This document shows positions 9,213-13,666 of a stretch of DNA of 64,000 nt, piece by piece (the first letter of the stretch is position 1; the number at the start of each line of letters is the position of its first letter). Origin of the DNA: Candidatus Defluviicoccus seviourii. Lineage in GTDB: Bacteria; Pseudomonadota; Alphaproteobacteria; Rhodospirillales; Defluviicoccaceae. The translations under genes were made by a program, and so were the position numbers. The stretch spans positions 77,278-141,277 of the forward strand of contig UXAT02000012.1 in assembly GCA_900609035.2 (NCBI GenBank), in the 5' to 3' direction. A model generated the notes under the pieces. The model saw only the letters and a program-made list of their open reading frames with translations, searched no databases and had not been told where the DNA came from.

Positions 9213-10043
9213 TCACCGAGATGGGCTTGTTTGAAGCCCGCCGCCATCCCCTTTGCGGTGTGCTGAAGGCTGCGCCGGCCCCGGAAACCATTCCGCTGAC
9301 CGGCCGGACACGCGGTAGGCAATGAGGCCAACATACTCCTTCACCGCCAAGTCGACGAGGGTGAGGTTTACGAACACGCTATAAAAATCCAGCGGTGTGC
9401 GGAAATCGACCGGGTAGGGCGCCACCTCCCAATCGAGGGCACGGAAGACACCGATTGCCCGCGGCATGTGAAAGGCCGAGGTCACCAGCAGCCACGTTTC
9501 GCCCGCTTTCGGCTGCGCGAGGCGGGCGCTGAACAGTGCATTCTCGTAAGTGGTTGCCGAGTCGCGCTCGAACAGGAACCGGTCGGCAGCAAGGCCGAGG
9601 CCTTCGAGCCAGGCGCTGACCCGATCGGCCTCGCGCACCGGCGGCAGATCCACGGCAGCAGCGCCGCCGCTGAAAATAACCCGCGCATCCGGATAACGCT
9701 GCGCGAGCGCCACCATTGTCGTCAGCCTTTCGGCGGAGTCGTTCAGCGTGACTTGGCCGCGCGCCTCGGTGATGGTGGCATCGATGCTGCCGCCGAGGAC
9801 GACGATGCCGTCGACCCGCGCCGGCAGGACGGCCGGGAAGCGCTCTTCGAGCGGTTGCATCAGCCAGGTGCCGAGCGGAAGAATGCCGGCGCTCACCAGT
9901 ACGGCCGTGGTTCCCACCAGCAGCCGGCCACCGAAGCGGCGGCGGCCCAGGGCCAAGGCGAGGAGCGCGATCGCGAGCAGTAGCACGAGGAGATTGCCAG
10001 GCCGGGCGATCAGCCAGAGGGCCTTGCCGACAATCATGAACAC
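9213..10043 (-). CDS. YdcF/ElyC-family (DUF218) membrane protein
   Basis: N-terminal TM segments, IVVLGG, IFSGG, SATTYENA, LVTSAFHMPRA, PYPVDF, KEYVG. Confidence 0.9.
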   Translation of the reverse strand: MFMIVGKALWLIARPGNLLVLLLAIALLALALGRRRFGGRLLVGTTAVLVSAGILPLGTWLMQPLEERFPAVLPARVDGIVVLGGSIDATITEARGQVTLNDSAERLTTMVALAQRYPDARVIFSGGAAAVDLPPVREADRVSAWLEGLGLAADRFLFERDSATTYENALFSARLAQPKAGETWLLVTSAFHMPRAIGVFRALDWEVAPYPVDFRTPLDFYSVFVNLTLVDLAVKEYVGLIAYRVSGRSAEWFPGPAQPSAHRKGDGGGLQTSPSR

Positions 10044-10088
10044 GCAAGACCCTCCCCTGGCACTCGCGCCGTCAGCTCAGATGGGAGT

Positions 10089-10173
10089 GCCGGCCGCTCA
10101 CGGACGGCATTGGCCGTGGCCGCGGACGATGTACTTGAAGCTGGTGAGCTGCTCGACGCCGACAGGGCCGCGC
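10089..10173 (-). repeat. Displaced copy of the proA 3' end (attR-like), 85 bp
   Basis: Matches 12350-12434 except one base (10164 a versus 12425 g, synonymous in a Pro codon); encodes [24 protein letters not shown]-stop with no upstream proA. Confidence 0.93.
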
Positions 10174-10268
10174 CATCGGTCCAGCGCTGCATCTTGTTGA
10201 ATAGTAAGCTGAAGGTATTGGTCATAAACGGGAGATCAGGCAGTCGCTTCCTTCAAAGGTTCTTTCCT

Positions 10269-11438
10269 TCATCTGCTTCCATCGCTGATCAGCGACGTTA
10301 CGACTGTATTGGGCGCCGGCTTCTTTTGGCGCGGTGTGAGATCGAACGTCACCCATTTGGCTTCGCGCGCCTCAAGGAGCAGTGTCCTTGCGTCGGCAGG
10401 GAATACGAGGGGTTGCTCAAGCATGCATCCGAACGCTTCGAACGCTCCGAATTCCTTCTTCTTCGCCGACAGCTCCCGCAGCCGCTTGCGGGCCGCATCG
10501 AGGCTTCGCTTGCGGCGGTCATGTAAGTCCGGTGTCCACCCTGGCGGCGTCTCGTCGGGGAATAGATCGCGCATCCGCGAACGTTCTTCTCGGGCGTCGA
10601 GCTTCGCGTCGACGCGGACGCTCTCTTGCGCCTCCACGGCCTTTTCCTCGACGGATCGAAATTCCTCGACACCCTTCCAATGCCGCGTTGCGTACACGAG
10701 GTAGAAATAGGTCCTTTCCACCAGCGGCTGCATGACCCTCGTTGACGTGACATACTCGAAGCTGCCCGCCGCTCGAAGGCGATTGCAGAAAACACCAAGG
10801 ATCGCGGCCTCCCGGTCCTCGCCACCCGCGATCCGTTGCTCGATTTCGCTGCGCCAGGACAAACCGCCAAAGATCGGATCGAAGGAAGCCCGGACACTCG
10901 CCTGTGGGTTCTCCAACAAATGGCGATTGATGTCGTTGTACATGAAGTTGATGATGACCTCGCCCCGCAACCGCAGCAGCGGCTGCAGAGCGTTAAGGTC
11001 TACGCTCCAGCCGGTTGGATCGACAAAGATCAGCGAGAATGCATTGTTGATGAACCGGCGCGCCTCCTTGATATGATCCTGAAACTCGCCGCAAATCGTT
11101 ATCGCTCCGGAGTTCGGAAACCGGGCAACGAGACGCCGAAGGTACTGAAAGGCGGATTGATCCCGCTCGACGAATAGGGCGCGAAAAGTTACGTCACGTC
11201 CGGCCTTCTGAAGGCCCTGCCGGACTGCCTCCAGCTTCGTCAATGCAATGAAGACAGAGGTGTCCCGGAAGTTCTCGTCGCCCGAGCGCCATGGGCCTGA
11301 GAAAGCATCGACGTACGCAAACTCCGACCAAGCGCCACCGGCCAGCGTGACGTAGGCAACCCGCTCAAGGTAGCGCTCAAGAAAGAAGTGCTTGACGAAC
11401 GTCTGTTCCCGCCCTTGGTACCACGATGGATCAAGCAT
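10269..11438 (-). CDS. tcmP: Three-Cys-motif partner protein TcmP (SAM-methyltransferase-like fold)
   Basis: KHFFLERYL, YVDAFSGPW (motif I-like), FVERD, IFVDPTGW, EVIINFMY, YFYLVYATRH; adjacent to DUF5131; GAGGA RBS before ATG 11438. Confidence 0.8.
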   Translation of the reverse strand: MLDPSWYQGREQTFVKHFFLERYLERVAYVTLAGGAWSEFAYVDAFSGPWRSGDENFRDTSVFIALTKLEAVRQGLQKAGRDVTFRALFVERDQSAFQYLRRLVARFPNSGAITICGEFQDHIKEARRFINNAFSLIFVDPTGWSVDLNALQPLLRLRGEVIINFMYNDINRHLLENPQASVRASFDPIFGGLSWRSEIEQRIAGGEDREAAILGVFCNRLRAAGSFEYVTSTRVMQPLVERTYFYLVYATRHWKGVEEFRSVEEKAVEAQESVRVDAKLDAREERSRMRDLFPDETPPGWTPDLHDRRKRSLDAARKRLRELSAKKKEFGAFEAFGCMLEQPLVFPADARTLLLEAREAKWVTFDLTPRQKKPAPNTVVTSLISDGSR

Positions 11439-11481
11439 GATTGACCAATCCTCGTCTGCGTGGCAGTATGACGACCGCCTT

Positions 11482-12252
11482 CTATTCAGCGGCGAGACCG
11501 GACATTTGCCGTAATGCTGAACTTCTGCTTGCAGCATACGGGACTTGATTCCACTCCCGCGAATCAAGCGTTCTGCCGCCCGCCTTTGGCGTGAGCCCTC
11601 CCCACTGCTTGAAGAAGAAGGGCACTCCTTCCGAACGACATTGATCGCGGATGGCGCGGACCCATTCGATGTTCATCGGCCGTGCGCGCGGCCCGCTCTC
11701 GCCGCCAACAATGACCCAGTGGATCCCGCCCAAATCCAACCGTCCGACGGGGCCAATGAGCGGTTCTAGCGACAGGAAGCGGATGGCCGCCGGGGTCCCC
11801 TGCAGGTGGGCAACACGGGACAGAAATCGGCCATTTTCGACCGACACGCCCAGCCAGATGTGCGCCGGCGCCGCCCCGCCGGCGTACCGAAGGTTCACAT
11901 ACCTTCGCATGCGCGAGCTGCGCTTGGTGAGCACCTGGTATGTGTGCCAGGCCGCTTGCTCCATCGTGTCGAAAACCAGGTCCACATACGAACACGGAAT
12001 CTTCTTGTGGAACAGATCACTCATTGAATTGACGAAGATCATTCGCGGCTGACGCCACTTTTTCGGCTGCTCAAGCCGCGCCGGTCGCAACGACAGGTCG
12101 AATCCAGTTTCGAATGGATGTCCAGCGACGCCCCTGAACCGCTCGGCAAACCGCTCAGCGTAGCAGTTGTCGCAGCCCAGGCTGACCTTCGTGCACCCCG
12201 TAACGGGGTTCCAAGTCGCGTCCGTCCACTCTATGGCGGTGCGGTCACCCAT
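11482..12252 (-). CDS. DUF5131 family protein (phage Gp37/Gp68-like; Cx6Cx2C radical-SAM-like)
   Basis: IEWTDATWNPVTGCTKVSLGCDNCYA, IFVNSMSDLFH, QVLTKR, WLGVSVEN, SLEPLIG, WVIVGGESG, FFFKQWGG. Confidence 0.92.
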   Translation of the reverse strand: MGDRTAIEWTDATWNPVTGCTKVSLGCDNCYAERFAERFRGVAGHPFETGFDLSLRPARLEQPKKWRQPRMIFVNSMSDLFHKKIPCSYVDLVFDTMEQAAWHTYQVLTKRSSRMRRYVNLRYAGGAAPAHIWLGVSVENGRFLSRVAHLQGTPAAIRFLSLEPLIGPVGRLDLGGIHWVIVGGESGPRARPMNIEWVRAIRDQCRSEGVPFFFKQWGGLTPKAGGRTLDSREWNQVPYAASRSSALRQMSGLAAE

Positions 12253-12264
12253 TCCTCCCTCCGC

Positions 12265-12290
12265 GAACGTTTACGGAACATAACAAGAAA
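12265..12290 (-). promoter_or_regulatory. Alphaproteobacterial LexA (SOS) box, exact plus an overlapping degenerate copy
   Basis: GAAC-gtttacg-GAAC at 12265-12279, continuing GAAC-ataacaa-GAAA to 12290; lies 13-38 bp upstream of the DUF5131 ATG, next to the GGAGGGAGGA RBS. Confidence 0.75.
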
Positions 12291-12358
12291 ATCAAGCCGG
12301 GTAAAGTGTTGCCGCGCAAACAGACGCAGTGTCCTGGTCAGACGTGAGCGCCGGCCGC

Positions 12359-13662
12359 TCACGGACGGCATTGGCCGTGGCCGCGGACGATGTACTTGAA
12401 GCTGGTGAGCTGCTCGACGCCGACGGGGCCGCGCGCGTGCAGCTTGCCAGTCGCAATGCCGATTTCCGCCCCCATGCCGAACTCGCCGCCGTCGGCAAAC
12501 TGGGTCGAGGCGTTGACGAGCAGGATGGCGCTGTCGATCCGGTTGACGAACGCTTCCGCCGCGGCTGCATCCTCGGTGATGATCGCTTCGGTGTGCTGTG
12601 AGGAATGGCGCTGAATGTGGGCGATCGCTTCCTCCAGGCCGTCGACGATGCGCACCGAAAGGATGGCGTCGAGATACTCCGTGTCCCAGTCGGCCTCGCT
12701 TACGGGAAGCACGCGGGCGTCGAGGGCTTGGGTTGCCGCATCGCCGCGGATCTCGCAGCCGGCATTGATCAGATCGTCCAGGATCGGCGGCAGCATCCGC
12801 GCGGCAACGGCGCGGTCGATGAGAAGCGTTTCGGTCGCCCCGCAGATGCCGGGCCGGCGCATCTTGGCGTTAAAGGTGACGCGCCGTGCCATCTCGGCAT
12901 CGGCCTTGGCGTGAATGTAGGTATGGCAGATGCCTTCCAAGTGCTTGAACAAGGGCACCCGGCTCTCCGCCGTCACCCGCTCGATCAAGGACTTGCCGCC
13001 GCGCGGGACGATGACATCGATCCATTCGGTCATCCGCAGCATGGCGCCGACGGCAGCGCGATCGGCGGTCGGCACCAGTTGGATTGCGGCTTCCGGCAAG
13101 CCCGCCGTGGCCAAGCCTTCGCTCAAGCACGCCATGATCGCGAGCGATGACTGCAGGCTTTCGGAGCCGCAGCGCAGGATCGCCGCATTGCCGGCCTTGA
13201 GGCAGAGCGCGCCCGCGTCCGCGGTGACGTTGGGGCGCGATTCATAGATGACGCCGATGACGCCCAAGGGCGTGCGCACGCGCTCAATCGCAAGGCCGTT
13301 CGGCCGCTCCCAGGCGGCGATTACCTGGCCGACCGGGTCCGGCAACAGCGCGATCTCCTCCAGGCCCTTGGCCATCGCCTCGATGCGCGCCTCGTTCAGC
13401 ACCAGCCGCTCGATCAGCGCCGCGTTCAAACCGCGCGCCCGTGCAGCCTCAACATCGCGCGCATTTGCGGCAAGGATGGCTGGCGCGTGCGTGCGGATCG
13501 AGCGCGCGGACGCGTTCAGCGCCTCGTTCTTGGCTGCCGTCGTTGCCGTCGCCAGCACGCTCGCGGCGGCACGCGCCTTGCGGCCGAGGCTTTCCATCAT
13601 GGCGGCGATATCAGCCTCCGGCTGCCCAGCCGTCGGCGCTGGTGCCAGCGCAGCCTGTCCGC

Positions 13663-13666
<4 letters not shown>
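12359..13666 (-). CDS. proA: Gamma-glutamyl phosphate reductase
   Basis: [69 protein letters not shown]. Confidence 0.98.

Follow-up and report, generated by a model that had tools for sequence, protein, structure and literature searches.

How does a small block of foreign DNA that encodes no integrase come to lie between two near-identical copies of a gene's end? The question is raised by a 64,000-nucleotide (nt) stretch from the alphaproteobacterium Candidatus Defluviicoccus seviourii (assembly GCA_900609035.2, contig UXAT02000012.1, positions 77,278 to 141,277; hereafter the window), in which two genes, encoding a DUF5131 protein and a TcmP protein, separate proA from the DUF218 gene that natively follows it, and are bounded by a direct repeat of the proA 3' end. 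The islet was indeed inserted at the 3' end of proA. We favor, with a probability of about 0.5, the explanation that it arose by an integrase-independent insertion with long target duplication, after which it would have persisted as a polymorphism, been homogenized and probably deleted in places by RecA, and been exchanged between lineages through its flanks.

The boundary of the islet is a two-copy direct repeat of 97 nt (4 mismatches, 96% identity), with copies 2261 nt apart from start to start, enclosing a 2164-nt insert that holds two minus-strand genes 43 nt apart. An earlier note, made from the sequence of this locus, had described an 85-bp repeat with one synonymous mismatch, covering the last ~24 codons of proA and a few bases past its stop, and had called the copy beside the ydcF-like (DUF218) gene an orphan fragment; all of this is borne out, and the repeat proves longer than described. 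Its 85-nt core (10089-10173 and 12350-12434) contains the single mismatch (10164 A versus 12425 G, CCC to CCT, both Pro) and consists of 73 coding nt of proA (24.3 codons), the stop (TCA at 12359-12361 for this minus-strand gene) and 9 nt past the stop; beyond the core, homology runs on for another 12 nt with 3 mismatches. The copy that forms the functional end of proA (R1) and the orphan copy (R2) differ in their post-stop tails: that of R2, TCAGATGGG, is native, matching the empty site of a related genome (G007, below), whereas that of R1 (12338-12358) has diverged from the native tail and carries a 5-nt deletion relative to a metagenomic relative (L038, below). The layout of replacement and displaced ends that the earlier note had proposed is thus present. 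The repeat occurs exactly twice in the source genome: a genome-wide search for a third copy, or for a short attachment (att) core near the resident integrases, turned up matches no longer than 24 nt and no better than chance. Of 600 random 2-kb spans taken from that genome, not one was flanked by a repeat with E<1e-6. The repeat search of the window found no inverted repeats pairing the islet ends, and z-scores for hairpins or terminators at the junctions were without significance.

That the islet was inserted can be read directly from its relatives. In two genomes of the same genus, G007 (93-94% identity) and G008, proA is directly followed by the DUF218 gene, and the repeat is present in one copy; these empty sites rule out an ancestral locus. 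The same islet, with the same junctions, is found in three independent metagenome lineages (Copenhagen sewage contigs L038-L040, a Logan contig, L043, and an activated-sludge contig, L062), and the minimal 2.16-kb insert is identical in structure across these three and the window; the repeat in L038 is 102 nt long. The agreement of independent assemblies disposes of an assembly artifact, which the earlier note had named as a danger to its deduction of an insertion. Guanine-plus-cytosine (GC) content, which that note had wished to see computed across the junctions, is 0.59 in the islet versus 0.66-0.72 in the flanks, and the islet is on this contrast foreign DNA. The 2281-nt contig L043 was considered as an excised circle and rejected, its terminal 20-nt overlap being explained by a 40-nt shared k-mer block, as expected of de Bruijn graph behavior. 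Among 43 family genomes, the source genome alone has a duplicated proA end (0 of the 42 others). In one further genome of the genus, G016, two full-length proA genes lie on contigs C38 and C170 (sharing 75% and 79% identity with the proA of the window), and may represent a paralog or a mixture of two strains.

Table 1. Features of the proA islet and its borders, in window coordinates.
Feature	Coordinates	Strand	Basis or remark
DUF218 (ElyC/YdcF-like) gene, native downstream neighbor of proA	9213-10043	-	PF02698 at 2e-27; adjoins proA directly in G007 and G008; probable start near 9992
R2, orphan copy of proA 3' end	10077-10173		73 coding nt, stop and 21 nt past stop
Islet-specific 3' non-coding tail, 95 nt, downstream of TcmP	10174-10268	-	Kept in L038, not in modules at other sites; no significant RNA structure
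TcmP, three-Cys-motif partner protein, 389 amino acids from ATG at 11438	10269-11438	-	TIGR04474 at 4e-42
DUF5131 (phage Gp37/Gp68 family), 256 amino acids	11482-12252	-	PF07505 at 4e-97
Module promoter and ribosome-binding-site region	12253-12310	-	GTTC-N7-GTTC at 12265-12279
Islet-specific 27 nt, from repeat to module promoter	12311-12337	-	Sequence comparison
R1, functional proA 3' end	12338-12434		Repeat search and comparison with relatives
proA, glutamate-5-semialdehyde dehydrogenase, 435 amino acids, intact	12359-13666	-	NF001221 at 1e-178

The islet contains little besides its genes: DNA specific to it around the two-gene module amounts to only ~27 nt upstream and 95 nt downstream (~120 nt in all). 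Profile searches of the window's proteins confirmed that no integrase lies inside, as the earlier note had stated, and no tyrosine or serine recombinase was found in or next to the islet, serine recombinases not having been searched for genome-wide. The source genome carries five PF00589 genes, some of phage-integrase size, all more than 100 kb from the islet, and no resident prophage or integrative and conjugative element (ICE) in it is bounded by the same repeat. Hallmarks of transposons or insertion sequences are likewise missing from the islet, which has no terminal inverted repeats. The nearest relatives of the module (72-84% amino acid identity) sit at unrelated sites, including a prophage-like region and a position beside vsr/dcm, with no flanking repeats around them. 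Two module relatives with 75-81% amino acid identity illustrate such settings: one (L048, 5188-7164) adjoins a phage lysozyme gene and a tail gene of gene-transfer-agent (GTA)-like type in a prophage-like or GTA-like region, and the other (L054, 599-3699) lies directly upstream of a vsr and C5-methylase pair.

Comparison of the islet-bearing lineages indicates how the insertion has fared since its arrival. Between the window and L038, synonymous divergence (dS) is 0.12-0.25 in five flanking genes (typA, DUF218, proA, proB and obg), versus 0.51 in DUF5131 and 0.44 in TcmP, and the islets of L062 and L043 are mosaics of blocks with 77-99% identity that stand side by side within the L062 DUF5131 gene. 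The high islet dS and the mosaic alleles imply that islet alleles either predate the split of their hosts or cross it by exchange; the islet is old, and polymorphic for presence and absence within the genus. In L062, identity drops to 75-83% amid values of 93-99% at window positions 13030-13179 (proA) and 11680-11979 (DUF5131), segments that resemble tracts acquired by recombination with more distant alleles. Each of the five substitutions that distinguish the window's proA end from that of L038 appears in R1 and R2 alike in either genome, from which it follows that the repeats undergo gene conversion (concerted evolution). Mismatches between R1 and R2 fall at 2 of 138 coding sites versus 8 of 53 sites in the stop and post-stop region (p=6e-4); between the window and G007, the orthologous post-stop tails differ at 4 of 29 sites and the coding part at 2 of 69. 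Gene conversion has erased the original crossover point, and it also means that the recombination machinery of the host could remove the islet precisely. The earlier note had confined strand exchange to 12426-12434; this interval is undercut both by the five lineage-specific substitutions shared between copies and by the mismatches at either end of the repeat, which would place a Campbell-type crossover in the identical block 12350-12424.

What the islet carries points away from recombination functions. The DUF5131 protein has a Cys-x6-Cys-x2-Cys motif and is radical-SAM-like (SAM, S-adenosylmethionine); it matches phrog_2045 and, distantly and below the model cut-off, TIGR04471 (rSAM_mob_pairA, radical SAM mobile pair protein A; 8e-21). 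The AlphaFold2 model of TcmP (confidence score pLDDT 89.6) predicts a class-I SAM-methyltransferase fold with a helical C-terminal part, its best matches in the Protein Data Bank (PDB) being Trm1 and DUF519, both weak (E about 2e-4); searches of the PDB by sequence with both proteins gave no match. Neither protein resembles a recombinase, the modeled fold of TcmP being that of a methyltransferase and not of a recombinase. In the PADLOC catalog, the DUF5131 protein corresponds to component B of the PDC-M30 and PDC-M41 pairs (PDC-M41B/M30B, ~1e-100) and TcmP, weakly, to component A (PDC-M30A/M41A, 4e-11 to 5e-6), and the two components are adjacent on the same strand, as that catalog demands of a pair. 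These matches suggest that the cargo is a predicted phage-defense or DNA-modification pair, a candidate in which profile and structure comparisons demonstrated no nuclease or active methylase. As far as a literature search showed, PDC-M30/M41 exist as catalog entries only, with no function or mode of mobility described.

Upstream of the pair, GTTC-N7-GTTC, which we take to be the alphaproteobacterial form of the LexA box, lies 27 nt before the DUF5131 ATG, and the position (-27/-28) is kept in L038, L043, L062, L048, L051 and L057, among them relatives at different genomic sites. The pair is therefore probably SOS-regulated, judging from this SOS-box-like promoter. One-mismatch versions of the motif occur in L044 and L049. 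The region yielded no sigma-70 promoter match; a CTTTAC-like motif is present ~50 nt upstream.

The same layout recurs elsewhere. In TcmP loci drawn from both the class and the phylum, we looked up to 700 nt from the pair for direct repeats that reach significance. Of 59 sampled DUF5131-TcmP loci, 7 have such flanking repeats, 39-88 nt in length; the controls, 76 spans shifted within those loci and 600 random ones, have none (Fisher p=1.5e-8). Three of these repeats are ends of protein genes and two are tRNA 3' ends. The longest, of 88 nt, duplicates the 3' end of a methylmalonyl-CoA-mutase-type gene (L129, genome G773); others duplicate a gene 3' end (68 nt; L132, G411), a gene 5' end (83 and 76 nt; L130 in G745 and L131 in G523), a coding-looking stretch (73 nt; L115, G577), tRNA-Pro from the anticodon loop to the 3' end (45 nt; L136, G579) and tRNA-Gln from the T-loop (39 nt; L119, G583). 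As L130 and L131 are the same insertion in one genus, the seven loci represent six independent events. An eighth case, outside this count, came from an earlier order-level search (G199, L026/L077; a 27-nt repeat of tRNA-Leu from the T-loop).

In these repeat-bounded islets, the repeats are two-copy in their genomes, the inserts (1.8-3.0 kb) contain the pair only, and tyrosine recombinases are absent from the 95 kb on either side of each. DUF5131 identity between their modules is only 33-70%, the two genes are found in either order, and no element ends are conserved among the inserts; for the G579 module no close relatives were found. In at least eight congeners of G773 the site is empty and has the gene-end repeat in one copy, and alleles 88% identical to that of G773 occupy the same site in related contigs. 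Two of the loci show further peculiarities: in L115 (G577:C1:1698127-1700563) DUF5131 and TcmP are fused in a single open reading frame of 645 amino acids, the 73-nt repeat being 82% identical between copies, and in L132 (G411:C1:62151-64037) a third, partial copy of the repeat (58 nt, 85% identity) stands 64 nt before the downstream one, suggesting a further local duplication. Two other flanking repeats were dropped because they belong to dispersed families: one of ~137 nt in G015 (L032, 409-543 and 2803-2937; four copies) and one of 35 nt in G454 (L127, 2937-2971 and 6317-6351; at least 20 copies).

Under the favored explanation, a self-contained cassette (SOS-box-like promoter, DUF5131, TcmP and a short tail) would have inserted once, in an ancestor within the genus, into the spacer of roughly 55 nt behind proA, duplicating ~102 nt of its target (the stop of proA with the 24 codons before it and ~26 nt after it) with no need for an element-encoded recombinase. 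An insertion would survive selection only if its duplication left the neighboring gene intact, which would account for the repeat being a gene end. The two repeats would thereafter recombine with each other, as the gene conversion shows that they do, and RecA-dependent recombination between them could precisely restore the empty site and release a 2261-bp circle, while homologous recombination acting through the flanks would carry islet alleles from one related lineage to another. The insertion, the duplication, the absence of a recombinase, the concerted evolution, the mosaic alleles and the recurrence at other loci are observed; for the making of the duplication and for excision we offer only inference.

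Several points weigh against this account. The biochemical origin of a 100-nt target duplication lacks an explanation, in published work as much as here. Of the eight repeat-bounded islets, three sit at tRNA genes (Leu, Gln and Pro), and starts in the T-loop, or spans from the anticodon loop to the 3' end, are classical crossover sublocations of tyrosine integrases. The non-native post-stop tail of R1 is what an element-borne replacement end would show. Both verified protein-gene cases have related alleles at the same site only, and close relatives occupying two distinct duplicated targets were not encountered. A second, phylum-level sample had flanking repeats at 0 of 20 loci, and the control of 600 random spans gives no base rate for other horizontally acquired islets.

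The earlier note had taken proA for the attB site of a site-specific element, and the corresponding explanation is a minimal att-bearing element (a satellite, or similar to a cis-mobilizable element, CIME) that brings a replacement proA end and is moved by a tyrosine integrase encoded elsewhere, in a prophage or island. Phage 21 and e14 integrate into the 3' end of icd with a replacement end, and the islet resembles them in its gene-end duplication, in the displaced end left as an orphan and in the foreign distal part of the gene-joined copy; unlike them, it is 2.2 kb long, has no integrase or excisionase, and its orphan is host-like in its coding part and not a diverged mimic. CIMEs related to streptococcal ICEs, and integrative mobile elements exploiting Xer (IMEX), are integrase-free DNA moved by recombinases encoded elsewhere. 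The islet too is integrase-free DNA between direct repeats, but no resident element has the same repeat, and no dif-like AT-rich core is seen by eye, no formal dif search having been made. The position of the repeat at a gene 3' end, the foreign tail of R1, the phage-integrase-sized genes among the five PF00589 members, the three islets at canonical tRNA sublocations and the constancy with which this islet lineage is found at proA within the genus would all suit an integrase acting in trans. Against it, no third repeat copy or related att site exists through which a resident element could share its att, no recombinase lies within 100 kb, none of the 42 other family genomes has a second proA end, and the nearest module relatives lie elsewhere without repeats; the coding part of the orphan carries alleles of the host lineage and not of an element, L130/L131 duplicates a gene 5' end, the whole G577 genome has two tyrosine recombinase genes only, and the repeat-bounded modules are distantly related with no common ends. 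We regard an integrase in trans as unlikely, and the designation of proA as an attB site is not supported.

Homologous recombination could also have brought the islet in, if a circle carrying the cassette and ~100 nt of a relative's proA end had undergone a single Campbell-type RecA crossover with the resident end after entry by transformation, GTA or transduction. The R1 tail does resemble a diverged ortholog of the native tail, the contrast between R1 and R2 being the same as that between the window and G007; the concerted evolution demonstrates repeat-to-repeat recombination, and related contigs come from sewage and activated-sludge samples. Such an origin nevertheless requires a donor with the cassette behind proA and no duplication, of which none was found, gives no account of first arrival at new targets (the tRNA and methylmalonyl-CoA-mutase sites), and relies on ~100 nt, near the lower limit for efficient RecA exchange; we consider it distinctly unlikely. 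Least probable by far is descent from a larger island or prophage that lost its integrase and its remaining genes by deletion, so that nothing but the cargo is left between attL and attR, the other form in which the earlier note had imagined the islet. Relatives of the module do occur as prophage cargo (L048, beside the phage lysozyme and GTA-like tail genes), and TcmP is listed in prophages (PMC12429752). Yet the ~120 nt of non-module DNA hold no gene fragments, the minimal structure is the same in all four lineages, and seven other repeat-bounded islets are equally tight, which makes a reduced remnant unlikely.

Insertion with long target duplication, the process that we favor, has been described for restriction-modification (R-M) systems (Nobusato et al. 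2000; Furuta, Abe and Kobayashi 2010, PMC2853133). The latter study looked for inserts of less than 20 kb that are absent from a flank-aligned relative, bounded by a repeat of more than 30 bp that is present once at the empty site, and that contain restriction and modification genes but no mobility gene. The islet is absent from G007 and G008, has a single-copy empty site, a 97/102-nt duplication and a 2164-nt insert, and lacks a mobility gene; in place of restriction and modification genes it carries DUF5131 and TcmP. Only in its cargo does it depart from that description, and it thus works like the class without being an R-M case. Like the R-M insertions, it is a small, defense-type unit of atypical GC content, its direct repeats overlap the 3' end of a neighboring gene, and the cycle of invasion, repeat recombination and release proposed for them is the one proposed here. 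It differs from them in its uncharacterized DUF5131-TcmP cargo, in being old, polymorphic across species-level lineages and homogenized by gene conversion, and in having some of its sister cases at tRNA 3' ends, a kind of location that PMC2853133 set aside as possibly site-specific. Long target duplication is itself known, if mechanistically unexplained, and the non-R-M cargo is the addition.

A bolder and improbable extension would cast the DUF5131-TcmP pair as a selfish unit akin to R-M systems, one that furthers its own capture by the chromosome, and hence as a new class of integrase-less mobile element. A radical-SAM and methyltransferase-fold activity acting on DNA and wired to the SOS response would, on arrival in a new cell, provoke staggered breaks or repair synthesis; repair would paste in the cassette with a 30-100-nt target duplication, and the repeats would then allow a recombinase-free cycle of excision and reintegration by host RecA. 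If this were true, such elements would form a class found at protein-gene and tRNA ends across the Alphaproteobacteria.

For the interpretation of genomic islets more generally, the proA locus shows that a gene-end duplication alone is no proof of an integrase att site. It adds a cargo other than R-M to the phenomenon of insertion with long target duplication, and offers unusually clean material for its study: empty sites are available, a single site has several diverged alleles, and the concerted evolution of the repeats can be demonstrated. The part worth pursuing is the recurrent, recombinase-free, gene-end-duplicating layout of the pair: with about one in eight sampled DUF5131-TcmP loci arranged in this way, the pair provides a tractable system for asking how small defense cassettes enter chromosomes without an integration enzyme of their own.

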